From a virus (Duplodnaviria; Heunggongvirae; Uroviricota; Caudoviricetes), in IMG/VR virus record IMGVR_UViG_2671180699_000001, positions 1-33,901 of that record: a stretch of 33,901 bases of DNA; one strand, 5' to 3'. Positions within the stretch are counted from its first letter, which is position 1, and each line of letters begins with the position of its first letter. Under the pieces are notes generated by a model. That model was not told where the DNA came from. It ran no database searches and was given only the letters and a program-made list of their open reading frames with translations. The position numbers were made by a program, and so were the translations under genes. This document shows, one piece after another, positions 1 to 33,901 of the stretch.

Positions 1-1284
1 TTACTTCTTCGCCTCTGCAACCACTTTACTACCCACGCCGCGGTTATTGTATTCCCACATGCGGTTGTAGTTAGTGTCATTCAGATTGCGCTGTATTTCG
101 TCGTTATCATCTACGCTGCCGGTATTACCCGCAAACGGACGATTAGAGATCACCGCATCGGCCCACGGTTTAGCCGTGTTAAAACCTTCGTTGATGGCGC
201 TATCACGGATCACCACCTGACCGTTGGTATTGGCATCAACATCCAGCGAGCGGCCCAGTTGCGCCACACCATCACCGAAAGCATTGAAACGGCTGTTTAC
301 GGCGAGGAAACCGTAGTAAATGTTGGACAGCGTAGCCGGTGCAAACACATACGCTTCTTGCTGAGTACGTGAGTTCACCACGCGGAATTCGGTGTTATCG
401 AACACCACTGCGCCGCGACCAGAAACGATATCCACATCCCCTTCAATGTAGCTGTTGGTCACCAGCGTACGCGGCTGACGATTCGTTTCCAGACGGTTCT
501 GCACACCGCTGTTGGTGACAAAGAAGGTGTTCTGACGACCGAGAATGTTAACGTTGTTAATCTGTACCTGGTCACCATCAGTACGCAGTGCCACCGCCGG
601 ATGGTTACCTGCATCTACGCTATCGCCCAGCGTGTTTTCGATGGTCAGATTTTGCAGTTGCAGGCCATTGTTTTGTGACCAGAAGACCGCAGAGCAGAGA
701 ACACCGATACTGTCGCTGCGTTTGCTCTGGCAGCTATCGTACATATACCACGCTGGTTTACCTGGCATATATTTGCCGCGCGGGTTGACGTCGTGACGCC
801 AGTCGGCAGGGCTCATGCCACCATCAAGGGAAAGCCCAATCTTCACATCAATCGGTTTTTCACCTGTACCGTACAGAGTAATTCCACCCGGAGCGGCAGG
901 GACATATACCGTTCCCTGATACTCACCAGGCATCACGGCAATATACTGGCGCTTGTTGGTACGCTTGATAATTGCCGCATCTACCGCCGCCTGAATCGTG
1001 GTATGCGTTACACCTTGAGTGCCCGCCGGGCCGACAACAAAGTCAGGTTGCGCAGGCAGGGTAATCGGGGAAGGATTCCACGCTGCAGCACCTGGTGTCA
1101 GGGATGCAAAATAGTGTTGAGCATCGAAATTCTGCGCTTCTTTTGCCGACAGAATCGGGCGAGAAGAGGTACCAGGCGCGGTTTGATCAGAAGGACGTTG
1201 ATCGGGCGGGGTTGAGCTACAGGCGGTCAGCGTCACGCCAAAAGCCAATGCCAGCGCCAGACGGGAAACTGAAAATGTGTTCAC
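1..1284 (-). CDS. ybhC: YbhC, pectinesterase-family outer-membrane lipoprotein (host gene flanking lambda attB)
   Basis: 427-aa ORF with lipoprotein signal (…LTACSS) and pectinesterase-like composition; ybhC is the known gal-side neighbour of lambda attB; apparent GTG start. Confidence 0.85.
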   Translation of the reverse strand: MNTFSVSRLALALAFGVTLTACSSTPPDQRPSDQTAPGTSSRPILSAKEAQNFDAQHYFASLTPGAAAWNPSPITLPAQPDFVVGPAGTQGVTHTTIQAAVDAAIIKRTNKRQYIAVMPGEYQGTVYVPAAPGGITLYGTGEKPIDVKIGLSLDGGMSPADWRHDVNPRGKYMPGKPAWYMYDSCQSKRSDSIGVLCSAVFWSQNNGLQLQNLTIENTLGDSVDAGNHPAVALRTDGDQVQINNVNILGRQNTFFVTNSGVQNRLETNRQPRTLVTNSYIEGDVDIVSGRGAVVFDNTEFRVVNSRTQQEAYVFAPATLSNIYYGFLAVNSRFNAFGDGVAQLGRSLDVDANTNGQVVIRDSAINEGFNTAKPWADAVISNRPFAGNTGSVDDNDEIQRNLNDTNYNRMWEYNNRGVGSKVVAEAKK

Positions 1285-7428: not shown

Positions 7429-7809
7429 TCAGTCAGCCCAACCTGATTTCGAGTTTATTTGGGTTTCTGACATTGTGTATTTCTTAATCGTGTCATCGTT
7501 AAAAAGAATAGTAAGTTCTTTTTTCGTACCGTTCGTTCCATTATGGAATAATCCATAGAATGGAATAAAAGTGGTGCCATTAACTTTTACTTTTGCAAAG
7601 GCGTACTTCCAGATCTCGTTTCCACTGTCAGTATATGAAACAGCATCAGGAGAACCAAAGTAAGATTTAACCTCATTCTTGGTTGTTTTACCTTCCTGAA
7701 GTTTAGACTGGACACTAATTTCAGTTTCATTTTTGAGTTGCTGGTTGCCTGAAGAAGCACACCCAGCCAATACAGATGCCATCATGGCAGCGATTAGGAT
7801 TTTTCTCAT
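7429..7809 (-). CDS. Lipoprotein (126 aa) encoded downstream of cI in the rexAB position
   Basis: Signal peptide with lipobox LAGC (MRKILIAAMMASVLAGCASS); AT-rich; co-oriented with and immediately downstream of the repressor gene. Confidence 0.8.
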   Translation of the reverse strand: MRKILIAAMMASVLAGCASSGNQQLKNETEISVQSKLQEGKTTKNEVKSYFGSPDAVSYTDSGNEIWKYAFAKVKVNGTTFIPFYGLFHNGTNGTKKELTILFNDDTIKKYTMSETQINSKSGWAD

Positions 7810-11386: not shown

Positions 11387-11670
11387 CGGGCAAAGAGGCA
11401 ATTATTCATTACCTGGGGACTCATAAGAACTTCTGTGCGCAGGACGTTGCCGCGGTAACAGGCGCAACCGTAACCAGCATAAATCAGGCTGCGGCTAAAA
11501 TGGCGCGGTCAGGAATCCTGGTCGTTGATGGTAAGGTCTGGCGAACGGTGTATTACCGGTTCGCTACCAGAGAAGAACGGGAAGGAAAGGTGAGCACGAA
11601 TCTGATTTTTAAGGAGTGTCGTCAAAGTGCCGCGATGAAGCGGGTGTTGGCTTTATATGGAAGAGAGTAG
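11383..11670 (+). CDS. ren: Ren (95 aa)
   Basis: Same size and position as lambda ren, directly after P. Confidence 0.85.
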   Translation: MTGKEAIIHYLGTHKNFCAQDVAAVTGATVTSINQAAAKMARSGILVVDGKVWRTVYYRFATREEREGKVSTNLIFKECRQSAAMKRVLALYGRE

Positions 11671-11734
11671 GTATGAGCAATTATTGTTACTAATTTTAGT
11701 TTTACGACATTCGTGATAACTAAATAATTGATGT

Positions 11735-11989
11735 GTGGAACTGAATTATAAAGGGGATGATGTTTTGGGAAATAAAGAAAATATCGATTGTAAGCACACA
11801 AGAAGCTCATGCTATAAAAACAAGCAGATGAAAGATGTTATTTATATTACATTGCCTAAACTCACTGAAGAAGAAGTAGAAATTTTTAAGGGACCAATGC
11901 ATAAAGCATTGCTTGCAGGGATAAATGTTACAAAAAAGGCAGTTTCTGATGCCCTGCTAAACAAAGGGATAAAAGTTGAATTTAAATAG
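11735..11989 (+). CDS. Small hypothetical ORF in the ren-nin insertion (start uncertain; GTG, TTG or ATG giving 53-84 aa)
   Basis: AT-rich, Lys-rich; convergent with the 472-aa gene; weak start signals. Confidence 0.3.
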   Translation: MELNYKGDDVLGNKENIDCKHTRSSCYKNKQMKDVIYITLPKLTEEEVEIFKGPMHKALLAGINVTKKAVSDALLNKGIKVEFK

Positions 11990-12004
11990 AGTAATTCAGT
12001 GGCA

Positions 12005-12032
12005 ACAATAGCACTCATTTGTGAGTGCTATT
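12005..12032. terminator. Bidirectional hairpin terminator between convergent genes (12-bp perfect stem CAATAGCACTCA / TGAGTGCTATTG)
   Basis: Read directly; sits in the 50-bp gap between the two convergent ORFs. Confidence 0.6.
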
Positions 12033-12040
12033 GAAATTTA

Positions 12041-13459
12041 TTAGAAAATAATGTTTGCTATATCCGAGATAGCATTTAAAGAACCTCTGTGGTCACTTCC
12101 TGTTTTAGGTAAAATATAGGAATATCGAGGGTCTTCATTATATGTTAACTTCCAGTGTTTTCCATCGCTTGACGCACTGAAACCTAAGTCCTTTAAATTT
12201 CTTTGTGTTGCGCTATCCATGCTTCTGTAACCTGTTAAAGTCCTTTTAAGTAATTGGCGGCGACTCTCGGTTTCTTTATTGTATTCATTATTGGCAATTA
12301 GGGATGATAAGATATGGTAGCTTCTACCAAATTCATTTTTATTTTTTATGGCAGTTTTTAGTGCGTCAATAATTATATTTTTGATTTCTCCATCAAAAAA
12401 ATCAGTCTCTTCACCAGCATTAAGCACAATGCTTCCTTGGGCTGAAGCTTGTGATTGAAGAGTGCGTACTCTGTGCTCTAAAGAGGAGATCTTATGCTTA
12501 AGATCTTCTATTTGGTCATCTTTCGCAACATTATCGGCTTCGTAAAGCGCCATCAGTTCGCGTGTGTATTCTCCTCTTTCTTTGAGTGAGTTAATAGAGT
12601 CTTTCGTTTTTCTGGTTTGTATCTCACTCCATCCACTATCTGAGACAGGAGCCATTGTAGTCGTAGCTCTTACAACATCATCAAATAACTCATCTTCAAA
12701 TTCTTTTGCGGTTTTCTCACCACGGCGATAAAAACTGATATTTTGACCCCGTGGCCAATAGATACCAACAGCACCAGCATAGGCATTTTTAGCATTTGTC
12801 TCATTTTTTAGCTTAATAGAAAATAGTCTATTGCTAGGCTCAATTAATACATGTGCTAATCCGCATACCTTTCTTGCAAGGCGTTCTGGGATGATATTGT
12901 GAGCATGTTCATTAAAAAAATACTTGGAGCTAACGTATATTATTGGTAGTCTGTTGTCAGTTTCACCATTTATAACTTTAGCTGCTATATTTAAATGTTC
13001 ATCAGTATCATCTAAGGAATGAGGTTCGACTGACACCTTGAAAATATCATCAAGACCACCAGAAAATTTATCAATCAATCTCATAACAACTAATGGTTTC
13101 TTAGGTTGCGGGGCTAGATAAGCTGCATCTTGGCTTACAACGCTAGATTCCACCTGAATCCACATGGTATCAGTTTTGAGATTTTTATTAATTGAAATAT
13201 CTGTTACCCATTTGTGTGGCTCAGATATTTTCGAATACCTAAAACAGCCTAAACTAGTATCTTTGTTTTTATAAGTTATTATATCAATTCTTTCATTTTT
13301 AGACTCTATGAAGTACTCCTCGCTTTTATAATCACATACTAATTGTGCTGGAATAAAAGTTGTATGTGGTGAGTCGTTTACCCAAGAAAAACATTCATTA
13401 AAGATCTCAGCTAGAGATGTGGAGTTTGAAACATAAAAACCAGTTGAGAAATATTTCAT
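12041..13459 (-). CDS. Orphan 472-aa protein in the ren-nin insertion; function unknown, candidate anti-phage/abortive-infection protein
   Basis: Long uninterrupted ORF on the strand opposite to the replication/nin operon; low GC; central coiled-coil (EDLKHKISSLEHRVRTLQSQ); no TM helices, no Walker A seen. Confidence 0.75.
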   Translation of the reverse strand: MKYFSTGFYVSNSTSLAEIFNECFSWVNDSPHTTFIPAQLVCDYKSEEYFIESKNERIDIITYKNKDTSLGCFRYSKISEPHKWVTDISINKNLKTDTMWIQVESSVVSQDAAYLAPQPKKPLVVMRLIDKFSGGLDDIFKVSVEPHSLDDTDEHLNIAAKVINGETDNRLPIIYVSSKYFFNEHAHNIIPERLARKVCGLAHVLIEPSNRLFSIKLKNETNAKNAYAGAVGIYWPRGQNISFYRRGEKTAKEFEDELFDDVVRATTTMAPVSDSGWSEIQTRKTKDSINSLKERGEYTRELMALYEADNVAKDDQIEDLKHKISSLEHRVRTLQSQASAQGSIVLNAGEETDFFDGEIKNIIIDALKTAIKNKNEFGRSYHILSSLIANNEYNKETESRRQLLKRTLTGYRSMDSATQRNLKDLGFSASSDGKHWKLTYNEDPRYSYILPKTGSDHRGSLNAISDIANIIF

Positions 13460-13734
13460 GAAATTTCCTTATTAAAAATGAGATTAATCTCATTGGCTAT
13501 GATAATTGTTACCCTCCTTTGGATCTAGTGTTCATTTGACATAAGAACCTATTGATTCATCATAATCAACTCGCCATAATCATGTCATCGGAGCCTGAAC
13601 AACTCCGGTGACTTCTGCGCTTTGAGGGGACTCAAAGTGCAAACGACAATCAGAACACCTTTCAACCAGTCACAGATGCAGAAATGCACCTGCGATATCT
13701 TGCATCCAACGTTTGACCTCTGCGGAGGTGAAGC

Positions 13735-15139: not shown

Positions 15140-15224
15140 AGTCAGAGATAACAATCAACTAATACTGTTTTGTTGATTTTTGCTTGTAATTGGCGTTCTG
15201 GTCTGATTTTTGTGGAGTAAGTTG

Positions 15225-15265
15225 ATGCGTGATATTCAGATGGTTCTTGAGCGTTGGGGAGCGTG
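15225..15265 (+). CDS. Q antiterminator (phage 82 / QuuD type), 5' fragment only, truncated by assembly gap
   Basis: MRDIQMVLERWGAW then N-run. Confidence 0.65.
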
Positions 15266-15275
15266 NNNNNNNNNN
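15266..15275. other. Assembly gap (10 N)
   Basis: N run in sequence. Confidence 0.99.
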
Positions 15276-15468
15276 GCCACCGACGGCATTGCGGTCAGAA
15301 AAAGATGATATTGAATCGCCCATTGAAAAACTGGAGGGCAGCGTCGCTGATCTGAATAAAAAATTGTCGGTGCTGATTCCTTCTGAAGATGAAAAAAAAC
15401 GCCGCGATGAGCAGTTTGCGGCGTTTTACGATTATTGCATTGAAGTTACTCTCGCAGGAATTTTGTGA
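15276..15468 (+). CDS. 3' fragment of an unidentified gene continuing from the gap (…SPIEKLEGSVADLNKKLSVLIPSEDEKKRRDEQFAAFYDYCIEVTLAGIL)
   Basis: Open frame runs from the gap edge; overlaps the minus-strand ORF below, so only one of the two is likely real. Confidence 0.25.
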
Positions 15469-15708
15469 AGATTTTTGAGGAGGGTAAATCTCTTCAGTAA
15501 GCTTAATGGCGGACGCTGCAATTAATTCAGGAAGGTCCGCAAGGTCATCTGTCAGTGGATATGATGAAAAATCGGCGGCAGTTCTGTTAAGAAGCGCTTT
15601 AACTAATTCCTTTTCCTTCTCCGGCAACAAGTTGATTAGAGCTACGACTGCTTGCCTGAGTGCGATTAAATCAGCAAAAGTTTGTTTAGGTAGATTTGTG
15701 TAATCCAT
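15295..15708 (-). CDS. Hypothetical protein upstream of and divergent from the lysozyme gene
   Basis: ATG with GAGG 6 nt upstream; N-terminal 100 aa look protein-like, C-terminal part overlaps the plus-strand fragment. Confidence 0.35.
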   Translation of the reverse strand: MDYTNLPKQTFADLIALRQAVVALINLLPEKEKELVKALLNRTAADFSSYPLTDDLADLPELIAASAIKLTEEIYPPQKSSQNSCESNFNAIIVKRRKLLIAAFFFIFRRNQHRQFFIQISDAALQFFNGRFNIIFF

Positions 15709-15821
15709 AGTCGCCTCTGTGTTTATCAGATTGACATCCTCCTCCCGCCAGTGCCCATCACTGGTGAGGTAAGATTTAACATATCCGGGGATTTGAAGCC
15801 GATAAATCCTGATAAATATCC

Positions 15822-16849
<1,028 letters not shown>

Positions 16850-17212
16850 ATTAATATTAAATCGGATTATTTTTAGCGCTGAATGTGAAATTTAAATAAA
16901 AAGGACTCTTCCATGAGTCAAAATCCTTGAAATCTTAAGGGTAAGATAAAAGGTCATTAGACAGAATGACACGTTTTATTAATAAATAAAGCTATTGTTT
17001 CATTCGTGTGTTTTTCTTTACAAAAGTAATCCTTGCTATGGTTGGTTAATCATGCGTTAATGGTGTTCTGGTTTGTTACAAAATTATCTGAAGCAGTCAT
17101 TGTTATAATTTTATTATTTGTACCTCTTGAGATTTCCTTGTTGGTTTTTCTCTCTGATATTTTTTTTCGGACCATTCTGCCCAAGGGCTAACTTCTTCAA
17201 AAGGTAATAATG

Positions 17213-17425
17213 ATGTCTAACAAAATGACTGGTTTAGTGAAATGGTTTAACCCTGAAAAAGGTTTTGGTTTCATCACGCCGAAAGATGGTAGCAAAGATG
17301 TGTTTGTCCATTTCTCAGCTATTCAGAGCAACGATTTCAAAACGTTAACTGAGAATCAGGAAGTCGAATTTGGTATTGAGAACGGACCTAAAGGCCCCGC
17401 GGCTGTTCATGTTGTGGCACTTTGA
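17213..17425 (+). CDS. cspI: Cold-shock protein (CspA family; CspI-like)
   Basis: [38 protein letters not shown]… with RNP1/RNP2 motifs. Confidence 0.93.
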
Positions 17426-17630
17426 GGTAGAAAATATTACAAACCATATTCACTTTAGATGCCCGTGTTGCCATGGTTCTCAGTATAGAACATCATCTTT
17501 TGATGTTTCTGACAGGAATCCTTTCGGGGCAAAATGTATCTTTTGTAAATCAATGATGATTACATTTGATAATATTTCACAATACTTAAATGTTAGCCGT
17601 CTATCGTTAGATTTAAGAAAGTGAAAATGA

Positions 17631-17653
17631 AGGCTCCTTCGGGAGCTTTTTTG
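17631..17653 (+). terminator. Rho-independent terminator
   Basis: AGGCTCC TTCG GGAGCT followed by TTTTTTG. Confidence 0.7.
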
Positions 17654-17736
17654 CTTAGTGTCTAGTCGATGGATACTCACATATTACGGTAACATTATGA
17701 AAAAAAATAATAGTTTTTTTTAACTCTGAACCAGCA

Positions 17737-17928
17737 ATGGTAGTGCCAGTGATGACCGGAGTTAACACCATCATGCGTGAATATCCAAATGGCGAAACAA
17801 CACACCTCACTGTAATGGCTGCAGGGTTTCCATCTCTGACCGGAGATCATAAAGTCATTTATGTAGCAGCGGATCGACATGTAACTTCAGAAGAAATTCT
17901 GGAAGCAGCAATGAGACTCTTGAATTGA
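17737..17928 (+). CDS. YnfN-like small protein (Qin-type cargo)
   Basis: Small ORF adjacent to gnsB as in Qin; start uncertain. Confidence 0.5.
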   Translation: MVVPVMTGVNTIMREYPNGETTHLTVMAAGFPSLTGDHKVIYVAADRHVTSEEILEAAMRLLN

Positions 17929-18100
17929 TTTGATTCTAATGCATTGATAATAAATGATAATCATCTTTATCTGTTTGTGTGAAATTTAGACCGTCGTATG
18001 TTGATTATTGCGATGTTTCATCTTATCTTTTATACGTTTGCTCCATATAATTGACACTACTGTGTACCAGGAAAGTCATAACAGACTAAAAGAGGAAATG

Positions 18101-18274
18101 ATGAACATTGAAGAGTTAAAAACAAAAACAGAAGCAGATATTTCTGAATATATAACAAAAAAAATCATTGAGCTTAAGAAAAAGACCGGGAAAGAAGTTA
18201 CCAGTATCCAGTTTACTGCACGGGAAAAAATGACTGGTCTTGAAAGCTATGATATCAAGATTGATTTAATCTAG
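18101..18274 (+). CDS. gnsB: GnsA/GnsB-family protein (57 aa)
   Basis: MNIEELKTKTEADISEYITKKIIELKKKTGKEVTSIQFTAREKMTGLESYDIKIDLI matches the Gns family. Confidence 0.85.
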   Translation: MNIEELKTKTEADISEYITKKIIELKKKTGKEVTSIQFTAREKMTGLESYDIKIDLI

Positions 18275-28537: not shown

Positions 28538-28867
28538 ATGCAGTTTGTCATGCGGCTTGCCCGGGAGTTCAGGCGGGCAGACTGGCGGCGGATGCTGTCG
28601 GAAATGTCGGCCACTGAGCTTGGTGAGTGGGGCGATTATTTCCGGATGCAGAGCTTCAGTGATGTGTGGATGGATGCGCAGTTTGCCTCGCTGAAGGCAT
28701 TGATCGTGAGAATGGTGTCCGGCAGCAGTGATGCTGCGGTGGCTGATTTCAGCCTTTTACCGGAAGAGAACGGGATACCGGAGCGAACGGACGAAGAACT
28801 GATGCATCTTGGGGAAGGTATTTCCGGAGGTGTGCGTTATGGACCAGATAGCCAACCTGGTCATTGA
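28538..28867 (+). CDS. T: Tail assembly protein T; -1 frame relative to G, open from about 28505, presumably made as G-T fusion by programmed frameshift
   Basis: Frame relationship to G read directly; conserved G-T arrangement of lambda-like tails. Confidence 0.7.
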   Translation: MQFVMRLAREFRRADWRRMLSEMSATELGEWGDYFRMQSFSDVWMDAQFASLKALIVRMVSGSSDAAVADFSLLPEENGIPERTDEELMHLGEGISGGVRYGPDSQPGH

Positions 28868-31800
28868 TTTGGGGATTGATGCGGCAGAGTTTAAAAATGA
28901 AATTCCCCGTATCAAAAACCTTCTGAATGGTGCAGCCAGCGATGCAGAACGGTCTTCTGCCCGTATGCAGCGTTTTATGGAGCGTCAGACTCAGGCCGCC
29001 CGGCAGACAACGCAGGCGGCGTCTTCGGCTGCAACAGCCGCATCCGTCCATGCGCAGACGGTGGAGAAGAACGCACAGGCTCATGAACGCATGGCCCGCG
29101 AGGTGGAGAAAACCCGCCAGCGTATGGAGGCACTGAGCCAGAAAATGCGCGAGGAACAGGCGCAGGCCATGGCTCTGGCGGAGGCTCAGGATAAAGCAGC
29201 TGCTGCGTTTTATCGTCAGATTGACAGTGTGAAACAGGCCAGTGCGGGGCTGCAGGAATTACAGCGTATTCAGCAGCAGATCCGACAGGCCAGAAACAGT
29301 GGCGGGATTGGTCAGCAGGATTATCTGGCGCTGATTTCTGAGGTTACGGCGAAAACCCGTGTTCTTACGCAGGCTGAGGAAGAGGCTACCCGACAGAAAG
29401 TGGCGTTTATCCGTCAGCTTAAAGAGCAGGCAACCCGCCAGAATCTTTCTTCTTCTGAGTTGCTTCGTGCTAAGGCTGCCCAGCTGGGGGTAAGCAGTGC
29501 TGCAGAAGTGTATATCCGCAAAATGGAGCAGGCAGGAAAAGCCACGCATTCGCTGGGTCTGAAAAGTGCAGCGGCCCGCCAGGAGATAGGCGTTCTGATA
29601 GGTGAACTGGCCCGCGGCAATTTAGGGGCGCTGAGGGGATCCGGGATAACGCTGGCTAACCGTGCCGGATGGATAGACACTCTGATGTCACCGAAAGGCA
29701 TGATGCTTGGCGGGGTTATTGGCGGTATTGCCGCGTCCGTCTATGGTCTGGGTAAAGCCTGGTATGACGGTCAGAAGGAGGGGGAAGAATTTAACCGCCA
29801 GTTGTCGCTGACGGGGCATTATGCCGGAGTCACTGCCGGGCAGCTGTGGACGCTCAGTCGTGCTATTTCCGGGAATGGTATCACGCAACATGCTGCAGCC
29901 GGTGTGCTGGCTCAGGTGGTGGGGAGTGGTGCATTTCGTGGAAACGATATCGGTATGGTGGCGAGAGCTGCCGCACAGATGGAGCGATCGGTTGGCCAGT
30001 CGGTCAGCGATACCATAAATCAGTTTAAGCGGCTGAAGGATGATCCTGTAAATGCCGCGAAGGCTCTGGACAATGAGCTGCATTTTCTTACTGCCACTCA
30101 GCTTGAGCAGATACGTGTCCTTGGGGATCAGGGACGGTCCAGTGATGCTGCACGGATAGCCATGTCTGCACTGGCAGAGGAAACCGGTCGGCGTACTGCG
30201 GATATTGATAATAACCTCAATGCGCTTGGCAGTACGCTGAAGTATCTGTCTGATTTATGGAGTCGTTTCTGGGATGCGGCCATGAATATTGGTCGTGAAG
30301 ACTCGCTGGATGAACAGATTGCCGCTTTACAGGAGAAAGTGTCGCGGGCGAAAAGACTCCCCTGGACGGCATCATCTTCTCAGGTTGAATACGATCAGCA
30401 GCGTCTTAACGATCTTCAGGAGAAAAAACGCCAGAAGGATTTGCAGGATGCAAAAGAGCAGGCAGAGCGGAATTATCAGGAGCAACAGAAACGACGTAAT
30501 GCTGAAAATGCTGCACTGAACCGGATGAATGAAACGGAAGCAGCACGACATCAGCGTGAAATTGCGCGTATTAATGCCATGCAGTACGCCGATCAGGCTG
30601 TCAGGGATGCAGCGATACAACGTGAAAATGAACGTTACGAGAAAGCCCTGGCATCCGGTAAGAAAAAAACACGCGAAACCCGTAATGATGAGGCCACCCG
30701 GTTATTGCTGCAGTACAGTCAGCAACAGGCACAGGTGGAAGGACAGATTGCTGCTGCAAGACAGTCAGCAGGCATTGCCACTGAAAAGATGACAGAAGCG
30801 CATAAACAGCTTCTGGCTCTGCAGCAGCGCATCAGCGATCTGGACGGGAAAAAACTGACGGCAGATGAAAAGAGTGTGCTGGCCCGTAAAGATGAACTGA
30901 TTCAGGCACTGACGCTGCTGGATGTAAAACAGCAGGAGCTTCAGAAACAGACGGCACTCAACGATCTGAAGAAAAAAACAATTCAGCTGACCAGTCAACT
31001 GGCTGAAGAAGAGCTCGCTCAGCGTCAGCAACATGACCTGGATATCGCCACGGTGGGTATGGGTGATCAGCAGCGGCAGCGATATCAGGTACAACTGAGT
31101 CTTCGCCAGAAATACCAGCAACAGCTGGAGCAGTTGAGGCGGGATAGTGAGCAGAAAGGGACATATAACACGGATGACTACAGAAAGGCCGAGCAGGCGC
31201 TGACGGAGAGCCTGAACCGACAACTGAATGAGAATCGCCGTTACTGGCAACAGCTTGAAGTTGTGCAGGGTAACTGGAAAAACGGAGTCCTGCGTGCATT
31301 TCAGGATTTTACCGTGGATGCAGACAATACGGCAGGAACAGCAGAACAGGTGTTCTCGTCAGCCTTCAGCAACATGGGAAATGGCCTGGCAACTTTTGTC
31401 ACTACCGGCAAACTCAACTTCAAATCCTTCACCTCTTCGGTGCTGTCAGATATGGCGAAAATCCTGGCGCAGGCAACCATGATGAAATCGATAAAAGGGA
31501 TTGGCAGTGTACTGGGATTTGATCTCAGCAGCCTTTCCCTGAATGCCAATGGGGGGATTTATCAGTCTGCTGATTTGAGTCGTTACAGTGGCACGGTGGT
31601 TAACCGTCCGACGTTTTTTGCTTTTGCAAAAGGCGCGGGTGTGATGGGGGAAGCGGGACCTGAAGCCATTCTGCCACTGCGTCGTGGTGCTGACGGTAAG
31701 CTGGGGGTTGTGGCGGATATTGGTGGTTCAGGTATGGCGATGTTTGCCCCGCAGTACAACATCGAGATCAATAACGATGGCACGAACGGGCAGATAGGTC

Positions 31801-31904
31801 CGGCTGCCCTGAAGGTGGTTTATGACCTTGGGAAAAAAGCGGCAGCGGACTTTATGCAACAGCAGGCCCGTGATGGTGGTCGGTTAAGTGGAGCATATCG
31901 GTAA
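28839..31904 (+). CDS. H: Tail tape measure protein H (about 1021 aa)
   Basis: Long Ala/Gln-rich coiled-coil protein, then hydrophobic and Gly-rich C-terminal region; GGAGG before ATG 28839. Confidence 0.93.
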   Translation: MDQIANLVIDLGIDAAEFKNEIPRIKNLLNGAASDAERSSARMQRFMERQTQAARQTTQAASSAATAASVHAQTVEKNAQAHERMAREVEKTRQRMEALSQKMREEQAQAMALAEAQDKAAAAFYRQIDSVKQASAGLQELQRIQQQIRQARNSGGIGQQDYLALISEVTAKTRVLTQAEEEATRQKVAFIRQLKEQATRQNLSSSELLRAKAAQLGVSSAAEVYIRKMEQAGKATHSLGLKSAAARQEIGVLIGELARGNLGALRGSGITLANRAGWIDTLMSPKGMMLGGVIGGIAASVYGLGKAWYDGQKEGEEFNRQLSLTGHYAGVTAGQLWTLSRAISGNGITQHAAAGVLAQVVGSGAFRGNDIGMVARAAAQMERSVGQSVSDTINQFKRLKDDPVNAAKALDNELHFLTATQLEQIRVLGDQGRSSDAARIAMSALAEETGRRTADIDNNLNALGSTLKYLSDLWSRFWDAAMNIGREDSLDEQIAALQEKVSRAKRLPWTASSSQVEYDQQRLNDLQEKKRQKDLQDAKEQAERNYQEQQKRRNAENAALNRMNETEAARHQREIARINAMQYADQAVRDAAIQRENERYEKALASGKKKTRETRNDEATRLLLQYSQQQAQVEGQIAAARQSAGIATEKMTEAHKQLLALQQRISDLDGKKLTADEKSVLARKDELIQALTLLDVKQQELQKQTALNDLKKKTIQLTSQLAEEELAQRQQHDLDIATVGMGDQQRQRYQVQLSLRQKYQQQLEQLRRDSEQKGTYNTDDYRKAEQALTESLNRQLNENRRYWQQLEVVQGNWKNGVLRAFQDFTVDADNTAGTAEQVFSSAFSNMGNGLATFVTTGKLNFKSFTSSVLSDMAKILAQATMMKSIKGIGSVLGFDLSSLSLNANGGIYQSADLSRYSGTVVNRPTFFAFAKGAGVMGEAGPEAILPLRRGADGKLGVVADIGGSGMAMFAPQYNIEINNDGTNGQIGPAALKVVYDLGKKAAADFMQQQARDGGRLSGAYR

Positions 31905-32233
31905 TGGAGACGTTTCACTGGAAAGTGCGCCCGGATATGAATGTGGTATCAGAGCCGAAAGTGGTGACAGTGAAGCTGGGCGATGGTTATGAACAGCGTC
32001 GTGCGGCGGGACTGAATAACCAGTTGTCGACTTACAGCGTGACGATACGTGTTCGTAAATGTGAACACCCATCTTTAAAAGCCTTTCTGGAACGGCACGG
32101 TGGCGTCCGCGCATTTCAGTGGACGCCACCTTATGACTGGAAGCCGATCAGGGTGGTTTGTCGTAAATGGTCGGCAAGCGTGGGGGCGTTGTGGGTAACC
32201 ATAACGGCAGATTTTGAACAGGTCGTGGCATAG
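31904..32233 (+). CDS. M: Minor tail protein M (109 aa)
   Basis: Same size and position as lambda gpM. Confidence 0.9.
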   Translation: METFHWKVRPDMNVVSEPKVVTVKLGDGYEQRRAAGLNNQLSTYSVTIRVRKCEHPSLKAFLERHGGVRAFQWTPPYDWKPIRVVCRKWSASVGALWVTITADFEQVVA

Positions 32234-32242
32234 GAGTCTCTG

Positions 32243-32600
32243 ATGCAGGATATTCCACAGGAAACACATCATGAGACGACACGCCTCACTCAGTCAGCCC
32301 AGGTGGTGCTCTGGGAAATCGATCTGACAGTGGTCGGTGGAGAACGTTATTTTTTCTGTAATGAGCAGAACGAAAAAGGTGAGCCGATCACCTGGCAGGG
32401 GCGACAGTATCAGGCGTATCCCATTCAGGGGACGGGATTTGAACTGAACGGCAAGGGCAGTGCTGCCCGTCCGACACTGACGGTTTCTAACCTGCACGGC
32501 ATGGTCACCGCGATGGCGGAAGACCTGCAGAGTCTGGTCGGAGGAACGGTGGTCCGGCGTAAGGTTTACGCCCGTTTTCTGGATGCGGTGAACTTCGTCA
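32243..32600 (+). CDS. L: Minor tail protein L, 5' portion truncated by assembly gap
   Basis: Lambda gpL-like N-terminus; frame runs into the N-run. Confidence 0.88.
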
Positions 32601-32610
32601 NNNNNNNNNN
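32601..32610. other. Assembly gap (10 N)
   Basis: N run in sequence. Confidence 0.99.
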
Positions 32611-32855
32611 AAAATGACCTGGATTATCCCTCTGCTGATATACGAGCGAAGATCAGTAAAGATATAGAAAGTGGTATCCCTGGCTATTGGCAAGGTCAGG
32701 TTTTGATTCCATTTACTATAGATCCAGTAACAAAAGAACGTAAACAAATCCATCCAGAAGATATACATCTCACTGCAAAAGACTTCGAAGCAAGTAAAGA
32801 TAATATTTCTAAGGATGAATGGGAAAACCTCCATGCATTAAAAGAAATCGTTTAA
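32611..32855 (+). CDS. 3' fragment of an unidentified low-GC gene continuing from the gap
   Basis: Open frame from the gap edge (…DLDYPSADIRAKISKDIESGIPGYWQGQVLIPFTIDPVTKERKQIHPEDIHLTAKDFEASKDNISKDEWENLHALKEIV) ending at TAA. Confidence 0.35.
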
Positions 32856-32860
32856 ATGGA

Positions 32861-33901
32861 ATGCCTAAAACAACCCCCAAAAGTGACCAGGTTATTATGC
32901 TGCAAAATCAATACGTTCGTGAAATGCGAAAATATGGCGTACGAGGTTTACGTTACGATGCAGCAAAACACTCAAAACATGAACAAATAGAAAGATCAAT
33001 AACCCCACCGCTTAAAAATTATAATGAGCGATTACACAATACTAACTTATTTAACCCAAAATATCATGAAAAAGTCGTTATGAATTACATGGAATATCTG
33101 GTAACTTGTCAGTTGGATGAAGAACAAATGTCATCGCTGCTTTATGAAAGAGATGATTTAAGCGCCATTGATTTTTCATTGCTCATGAAGACGATAAAAG
33201 CTTTTTCATTTGGTGGCGATCTCCAAACCCTTGCATCAAAACCGGGTTCCACAATCTCAAGCATCCCATCAAAAAGACGGATATTGATTAACATTAACCA
33301 CGATTTTCCTAACAATGGCAATCTTTTCAATGACTTTCTATTTAACCATCAACAAGATGAACAATTAGCAATGGCATATATGGCCGCTCTCCCGTTCAGC
33401 AGGCCTTTAGTTTACTGGGATGGCCAAGTATTAAAATCAACGACTGAAATTAAAAATTATGATGGGTCGACGCGTGTTGGCGATGAGGCGTGGCTTAATA
33501 AAGGTTGCTCTACCTATCAGCAGCTCTACAATGAATTCCACGCATTATATATAGATAAAGCAGGAATATGGAGCGCATTTGAGGGTGTATTTGCAACTAA
33601 AAACGTTCTGGCCTTTAGTCGTGGGGATTCTGTGAACATTAATCACTCTCCTCATGATGGACTAATTATAATAAATAAAGGAAACGAAGAAGTTGAAGGT
33701 GCCTGGCCTAACAAATTGCAACCTGGAAAATATAAAAACATGGGGAGTAATAGCGTTAACATTATTATTAATACCCGAAAAATTATCCCCCCTGGTAAAG
33801 CATTTATGCTTAGAGGCGGAACTCTAAATATCAATATTCCTGGGCGTAGCGCTCTTCTTTTAGGGAAAACAGGAGAACCGCTGAACTATCTCTATTTGTA
33901 A
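32861..33901 (+). CDS. Low-GC hypothetical protein, possibly GH13 (alpha-amylase family)-like
   Basis: GLRYDAAKH resembles GH13 region II (G-F/L-R-x-D-A-x-K-H); FNHQQD resembles region IV; beta-rich C-terminal domain; ORF opens at 32819 in a different frame from the upstream fragment. Confidence 0.5.
   Translation: MPKTTPKSDQVIMLQNQYVREMRKYGVRGLRYDAAKHSKHEQIERSITPPLKNYNERLHNTNLFNPKYHEKVVMNYMEYLVTCQLDEEQMSSLLYERDDLSAIDFSLLMKTIKAFSFGGDLQTLASKPGSTISSIPSKRRILININHDFPNNGNLFNDFLFNHQQDEQLAMAYMAALPFSRPLVYWDGQVLKSTTEIKNYDGSTRVGDEAWLNKGCSTYQQLYNEFHALYIDKAGIWSAFEGVFATKNVLAFSRGDSVNINHSPHDGLIIINKGNEEVEGAWPNKLQPGKYKNMGSNSVNIIINTRKIIPPGKAFMLRGGTLNINIPGRSALLLGKTGEPLNYLYL

Follow-up and report, generated by a model that had tools for sequence, protein, structure and literature searches.

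The virus record IMGVR_UViG_2671180699_000001 (IMG/VR), whose 33,901 nucleotides (nt) we analysed in full and refer to here as the window, carries lambdoid prophage genes up to a run of ten Ns near its right end, after which the DNA changes to AT-rich sequence that continues to the last base. A preliminary description, made from the letters of the sequence, had proposed that unrelated low-GC genes, one of them possibly encoding a degenerate GH13-like (alpha-amylase family) protein, replace here the end of the lambda-type tail gene L and the whole of K, I and J, and had offered a scaffold mis-join or foreign cargo as the explanation. We found that the DNA after the gap comes from the 3' end of ygaQ, a chromosomal E. 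coli gene already known to be broken, and that what had been taken for unrelated genes is one already catalogued pseudogene. Nothing new is therefore to be seen at this position, which would hold an assembly artefact beside a well-known E. coli pseudogene. Very probably the join is an unsized spacer between unrelated contigs rather than a replacement of tail genes, and the window is a trimmed prophage call on a draft scaffold. The features that meet at the gap are the following.

32601–32610, no strand: unsized 10-N spacer that separates two contigs.
32243–32600, plus strand: lambdoid minor tail protein gene L, the first 358 of its 699 nt, cut at the contig end (by identity to the E. coli NH-21 gene).
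32611–33901, plus strand: the 3' 1,291 nt (nt 959–2249) of the ygaQ pseudogene (b4462), alpha-amylase/GH13 family.
32613–32855, plus strand: upstream ygaQ frame, 80 codons without a start, followed by a TAA (32853–32855) that results from a frameshift.
32819–33901, plus strand: downstream ygaQ frame, overlapping the upstream one, with 360 residues from its first ATG or 347 from the ATG at 32861.

The N run comprises exactly 10 bases. To its left the window is identical to L of E. coli NH-21 (17444–18142 of L003) through the last base before the Ns, and the final 100 bases before the run all belong to this gene, which in NH-21 extends 341 nt further, the remainder past the cut point starting with ACGGAAACAGTGACGCC. 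Of the lambda-type order L-K-I-J, the window thus holds the first 358 nt of L only, and K, I and J are absent. Beyond the Ns, the 1,291 nt at 32611–33901 have a GC content of 37.6% (35.9% for the upstream frame fragment and 37.8–38.0% for the downstream open reading frame, or ORF), as compared to 54% for the tail module at 26000–32600, and the downstream ORF runs to the stop codon of ygaQ, with which the window itself ends. What the preliminary description had reported of the sequence itself could be seen again: low-GC DNA after the gap, two open frames, missing tail genes, and the motifs GLRYDAAKH (32945–32971) and FNHQQD (33341–33358). Its figure of 33–35% for the GC content was too low, as we measured 36–38%, though the contrast with the prophage is real.

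A megablast search of 5,426 complete E. coli genomes located 32612–33901 in 4,103 of them, always on the chromosome and at a median of one copy, the best matches, in many of these chromosomes, being 100% identical over the full 1,290 nt; plasmid copies of the segment were absent from the same set. Its counterpart in complete genomes is a pseudogene of ~2.25 kb that lies between a tRNA-Ile gene and glaH-lhgO-gabD-gabT-gabP and is annotated as 'alpha-amylase family glycosyl hydrolase' or 'alpha amylase C-terminal domain-containing protein', with the remark 'frameshifted; internal stop'. In K-12 MG1655 this locus is ygaQ (b4462), a pseudogene at 2786397–2788649 on the plus strand, between ileY and glaH (csiD). 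K-12 ygaQ, earlier annotated as several ORFs (ygaQ, ygaR and others, including b2657 and b2658), shares its locus, frame and stop codon with the window segment, and 43 of 1,295 aligned columns differ between the two (96.7% identity). The window picks up ygaQ precisely at nt 959 of the MLI023K1 allele, with zero additional bases; the ygaQ bases directly upstream of this break end in GGGGGTAGTGGTA. As the segment starts within ygaQ and ends at its stop, both neighbours of the gene, the tRNA gene ileY and glaH, are outside the window. The same picture came from the protein: the surroundings of the exact 360-residue product were read for 24 contigs (24 of the 166 blocks of the index), and in all ten distinct places shown the ORF stands downstream of the 110-residue ygaQ piece, the 283-residue piece, or both. 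In these ten places glaH (of glaH-lhgO-gabDTP) comes next on each contig that is long enough, and no phage genes lie beside the 360-residue product.

The two frames after the gap owe their separation to one lost base.

32844–32848, plus strand: 1-nt deletion in an A run, relative to K-12, splitting ygaQ into two frames.

At the deletion site K-12 reads CATGCATTAAAAGAAAAGCG and the window CATGCATTAAAAGAAATCG (in short form, GAAAAGCG and GAAATCG, respectively). Relative to K-12, the deletion creates the TAA at 32853–32855, a point through which the upstream frame of K-12 continues, and the addition of one A yields a single 429-codon frame through the end of the window. The suggestion that the two frames are one amylase gene split by a single indel was therefore correct, and they constitute one pseudogene. 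K-12 ygaQ is broken in another way, by in-frame stops at codons 111, 345 and 613 and without a frameshift. At the latter two positions the window allele has Trp, and besides the deletion at ~32844–32848 it lacks 3 nt near 33768. The window allele holds nt 959–2249 of ygaQ only; identical full-length alleles in complete genomes also have the stop at codon 111, outside the window.

We found no adjacency of L and ygaQ in complete genomes. The halves of a junction query with 700 nt from each side came within ~1.2 kb of each other in 0 of the 5,426 genomes, and a longer query of 24.9 kb, able to link pieces as far as ~13 kb from each other, gave 25 best late-module matches that all halt at window position 32600, none of them with ygaQ inside that distance. 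L continues in complete genomes to K (a C40 peptidase), I, J, lom and a tail fibre gene; e.g., S6aCHROMc, which has the same integrase at ybhC, reads L-K-I-J-lom-tail fibre, and its prophage ends at ybhB-bioA. The late regions closest to 15276–32600 (those of PCN061, CUPF06 and NH-21; 99–99.9%) lead instead to a prophage end of pinQ-ydfK-ydfJ, at the Qin site. Chromosomal DNA is also found at the opposite edge of the window.

1–1284, minus strand: ybhC, the left side of lambda attB, chromosomal; a 427-residue ORF from window base 1.

The succession of ybhC, integrase and excisionase is annotated in complete genomes at 99.8% identity, and in K-12 ybhC (805998–807281, minus strand) is next to ybhB-bioA. 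On the K-12 map, ybhC (0.806 Mb, minus strand) and ygaQ (2.786 Mb, plus strand) are ~2 Mb apart, and they have the same relative orientation in the window. Because of this shared orientation, a true fusion as one piece of chromosome would need a deletion of ~2 Mb rather than an inversion, and we rejected an inversion between the prophage and ygaQ for the same reason. In complete genomes the tail module left of the second gap has a median copy number of 2 and a maximum of 8, so that it behaves as a repeat in short-read assembly and offers a mundane explanation for a contig that stops within L.

A second run of ten Ns in the window shows what such a run can stand for in this scaffold.

15266–15275: first 10-N run, an unsized spacer.

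Its left flank (15182–15265) is the start of the Q antiterminator gene and its right flank (15276 onwards) is a truncated ydfR, and in collinear complete genomes (PCN061 and CUPF06) these flanks are 4.3–4.8 kb apart. As 10 Ns here stand for 4.3–4.8 kb, a run of 10 N in this scaffold is a placeholder and not a measured gap. The segment left of the first gap shows partial collinearity with the prophage that S6aCHROMc carries at ybhC (lambda attB), and 15276–32600 has 99–99.7% identity to the Qin-site late regions of PCN061 and CUPF06; the window may combine the left arm of an attB-lambda prophage with a late region from another prophage.

Taken together, we consider that the L/ygaQ join very probably arose in scaffolding and does not exist in the source strain. 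The window would consist of three contigs and two 10-N placeholders, the second of which would unite a contig ending in L, at the start of the multi-copy tail module, with a contig starting in ygaQ; the contigs themselves probably broke at repeats, an IS (insertion sequence) element or a drop in coverage. K, I and J would not have been replaced at all, merely lying outside this scaffold path. The record itself would be a prophage call cut at gene boundaries on a scaffolded draft E. coli genome, and the position of the window edges at the ybhC stop and the ygaQ stop suggests that the prophage predictor trimmed to genes and crossed both N spacers into AT-rich chromosome. Several points weigh against this explanation. 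We looked for IS terminal bases at both contig ends and found none, L and ygaQ each being clean up to the Ns, and the cause of the break inside ygaQ is not visible; an IS end at the contig boundary was rejected on the same ground, with no non-L or non-ygaQ bases on either side. As to that cause, an IS3 in CUVM3 lies ~17 nt from the break point of the window, other draft contigs likewise start inside ygaQ, and an IS insertion, an AT-rich coverage drop or assembler trimming are each possible as the origin of the contig start. The interval from ssrA to ygaQ is, moreover, a genuine hot spot of integration: K-12 has CP4-57 there, and strain 1639/77 has the Stx1 prophage CP-1639, with ygaQ truncated. 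A prophage near ygaQ is thus not absurd in principle. Conceivably, this single strain does carry a true junction.

The hot spot gives rise to an alternative in which the scaffold is correctly ordered but its gap is a long one: the late module at 15276–32600 would belong to a lambdoid prophage in the interval from ssrA/ileY to ygaQ, and the 10 Ns would conceal the remainder of L, together with K, I, J, the tail fibre gene, attR and a replacement of the first 958 nt of ygaQ. That the other 10-N run hides several kb would fit this, as would the CP4-57 remnants (K-12), the integrase/ParB islands (other strains) and CP-1639 beside a truncated ygaQ, all upstream of ygaQ, and in ~660 of 4,047 genomes ygaQ has lost its 5' part or is interrupted close to the break (no match of at least 80% to an 801-nt query around it). 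A prophage at ssrA, with its integrase beside ssrA, would presumably also read its tail genes toward ygaQ on the same strand, as in the window. However, the nearest relatives of the late module (99–99.9%) are all at the Qin site and end in pinQ-ydfK-ydfJ, ygaQ is missing from the ~13 kb downstream of each of the 25 best matches, CP-1639 is reversed, with its early genes by ygaQ and its tail genes by ssrA, and the usual truncation of ygaQ is near nt 1145 and not at nt 959; we regard this alternative as very unlikely. A real and short junction, in which a deletion or an IS-mediated rearrangement or translocation joined nt 959 of ygaQ onto the 5' portion of L, appears highly improbable to us. The scaffolder did link both ends, some scaffolders write 10 Ns for gaps that are short or cannot be sized, and IS elements are at hand, with an IS3 at ~nt 942 of ygaQ in CUVM3 and IS1, IS3 and IS66 occurring within these prophages; against this, the 5,426 complete genomes hold no such junction, neither contig end has IS end sequence and, if the late module is in the ybhC prophage, ~2 Mb of essential chromosome would have been lost.

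The foreign cargo of the preliminary description, which would make the segment a prophage cargo gene (moron) downstream of the tail genes, has in our view a negligible chance of being right, and it was the mis-join that found support, with two unrelated loci that are not adjacent in complete genomes. Low GC content and a scaffold position beside phage genes are all that speak for cargo, and they are set against a fixed place beside glaH in thousands of genomes, prophage present or not, the lack of plasmid copies in complete E. coli genomes, and a search of 50,697 phage records in which the sole match was host flank. A moron would be inside the prophage and travel with the phage, and the segment was rejected as one because its chromosomal context is independent of prophages. 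The single phage-collection match (96.6% identity over 85% of the query) is to the CP-1639 record (AJ304858), which includes the 'chromosomal integration site' of a lambdoid prophage beside a truncated ygaQ; the ygaQ deposited there is chromosomal flank and not phage DNA. In that record ygaQ borders on a 'remnant integrative element' where the early genes of the prophage lie, has the opposite orientation, and is truncated ~190 nt further in than in the window.

With ygaQ recognized, a false lead is removed: there is no novel tail cargo here and no phage-borne amylase. Prophage callers that are run on scaffolded drafts may cross N spacers and take in AT-rich chromosomal DNA, which then mimics exotic cargo or a replaced tail module. 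The window is a probable chimera of up to three loci, and conclusions that span either N run are untrustworthy without gap closure.

The GH13 assignment of the preliminary description was sustained at the level of homology. The repaired protein of 749 residues matched PF00128 (Alpha-amylase) at E=3.5e-5, its 23.7 bits being just above the cut-off of 22, and it passed the threshold of PF02806 (Alpha-amylase_C) as well; the 360-residue ORF alone matched only PF02806 (E=1.5e-5, 25.7 bits against a cut-off of 21.2), over its residues 260–348 (nt 33596–33862). A five-sequence profile of the family matched the alpha-amylase structures 1UA7 and 1BAG of B. subtilis (AmyE) at E=5e-19. A Pfam DUF237 match of the upstream fragment was below threshold (17.4 bits, cut-off 25) and was treated as noise. 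Three of the conserved GH13 regions have counterparts in the window.

32945–32971, plus strand: GH13 region II, GLRYDAAKH, carrying the nucleophile Asp (aligned to solved alpha-amylases).
33017–33046, plus strand: GH13 region III segment, NYNERLHNTN, in which different alignments place the acid/base Glu differently.
33290–33304, plus strand: GH13 region IV, NINHD, with the transition-state-stabilising Asp (profile alignment).

GLRYDAAKH had been proposed as region II, which is where it aligns: it pairs with GFRFDAAKH of B. subtilis (1UA7/1BAG) and GLRWDAAKH of R. bromii Amy16, and its R, D, K and H are invariant across five family members. The proposal that FNHQQD is region IV did not hold, as region IV is NINHD ('vinhdiPnng' aligned to VESHDTYAND of 1UA7/1BAG, N-H-D being invariant in five family members), and FNHQQD falls after it, ~17 residues further on. 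Region III is less clear. By phmmer, NYNERL is opposite NYGEIL of Amy16, Glu to Glu; in a MAFFT alignment, the Glu of GET in two paralogues (P0009 and P0010) is opposite the first Asn of HNT; and in a profile alignment the Glu of AmyE YGEIL is opposite the Asn after HNT. The E. albertii orthologue reads NIKRRSHITN at this place and has no Glu under any of these alignments, and an AlphaFold2 model of the intact 750-residue allele (5-sequence alignment; mean predicted local distance difference test score, pLDDT, 42.6; predicted template modelling score, pTM, 0.31) was too poor to be used for region III. Region I is encoded upstream of nt 959, outside the window; in full-length alleles it reads IIPDYTFNF, aligned to VIVDAVINH, so that the Asp and Asn of the DxxxNH motif are kept and its His is a Phe (DYTFNF). 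Based on these comparisons, 'degenerate GH13-like' is a fair label for the predicted protein, with homology established and catalytic competence not claimed.

The closest relatives of known structure, both to the repaired protein and to the profile, are those of the AmyE type (1BAG, 1UA7 and 3DC0) and Amy16 (9QF9), with which regions I, II and IV and a C-terminal all-beta domain can be aligned. Unlike AmyE-type enzymes, the ygaQ protein has low similarity to these structures, a ~210-residue N-terminal extension without a match, Phe for the region I His, no confidently placed acid/base Glu and a longer insert between regions III and IV, and its gene is broken. Collinear with it over the full length are the E. 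albertii orthologue (738 residues, e.g., WP_273819635.1; 59% identity) and intact 750-residue E. coli alleles (95%), which share the motifs of regions II and IV; their frames are open, whereas the window allele is frameshifted and incomplete. P0009 and P0010 (798–806 residues; E. coli WP_334614416.1) are distant ygaQ paralogues with 34–36% identity, present on few short contigs, and they have canonical GH13 motifs (GFRIDAEKH, FVFGET and VNHDIPNNG) behind a different N-terminal extension of ~330 residues. Among 5.8 billion proteins the ygaQ family formed 10 clusters, and all those named by organism are from Escherichia or Shigella. We can speculate, as an unlikely possibility, that the family is a non-hydrolytic GH13 derivative, or an enzyme of altered chemistry, that E. 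coli is losing and E. albertii is keeping; the tiny clade, the unmatched N-terminus, the substituted region I His, the unplaced acid/base Glu and the lineage-specific lesions would point this way. Such a pseudoenzyme would bear on the gene family and not on the junction.

The lesions of ygaQ are independent ones: K-12 has its three stops, the window its 1-nt frameshift, CUVM3 an IS3 at ~nt 942, and partial matches repeatedly show a truncation near nt 1145. The nt 1145 truncation is within ~10 nt of the boundary between the 'remnant integrative element' and ygaQ in the CP-1639 record. Intact 750-residue alleles are found in few E. coli, and the intact 738-residue orthologue is found in many E. 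albertii assemblies.

Published work (Warman et al. 2020, PMC7229825) describes ygaQ as an AT-rich gene of horizontal origin that H-NS silences and that contains a spurious promoter inside its coding sequence; the promoter fragment in question falls within the window.

33029–33178, plus strand: 'ygaQ 1.1' intragenic promoter fragment, H-NS-repressed; the Warman primers map with 1 and 0 mismatches (PMC7229825).

Our scans of 32611–33901 gave promoter consensus sites and terminator-like sites at chance level only (6 against 4.7 +/- 2.4 expected and 2 against 1.1 +/- 0.9 expected, respectively). Over-expression of the 110-residue N-terminal ygaQ ORF, which is upstream of nt 959 and thus outside the window, was reported to confer resistance to mitomycin C, and flap nuclease activity has been claimed for it (PMC4725251); the same 2016 paper mentions the adjoining alpha-amylase-like ygaR. 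The biochemistry of that 110-residue fragment (PMC4725251) is all that we found, with no enzymatic data on a full-length ygaQ protein.

Three further low-GC patches are located elsewhere in the window. A 472-residue ORF (12041–13459, minus strand) occupies an island of 33–38% GC at ~11500–13500, between the replication and nin genes; it had no Pfam match, and its residues 83–334 matched the PADLOC candidate defence family HEC-07 (E=1e-9), which makes it a possible anti-phage defence cargo gene of the prophage. In a patch of 36% GC, a 126-residue ORF (7429–7809, minus strand) scored 21.8 bits against the BamE domain, under the cut-off of 23.2, and may encode a small lipoprotein-like moron of the early region. 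The region 17000–18500 (33–37% GC), from the lysis genes to terminase, corresponds to the cspI-ynfQ-ynfN-gnsB block of small genes that Qin-type prophages of complete genomes carry.

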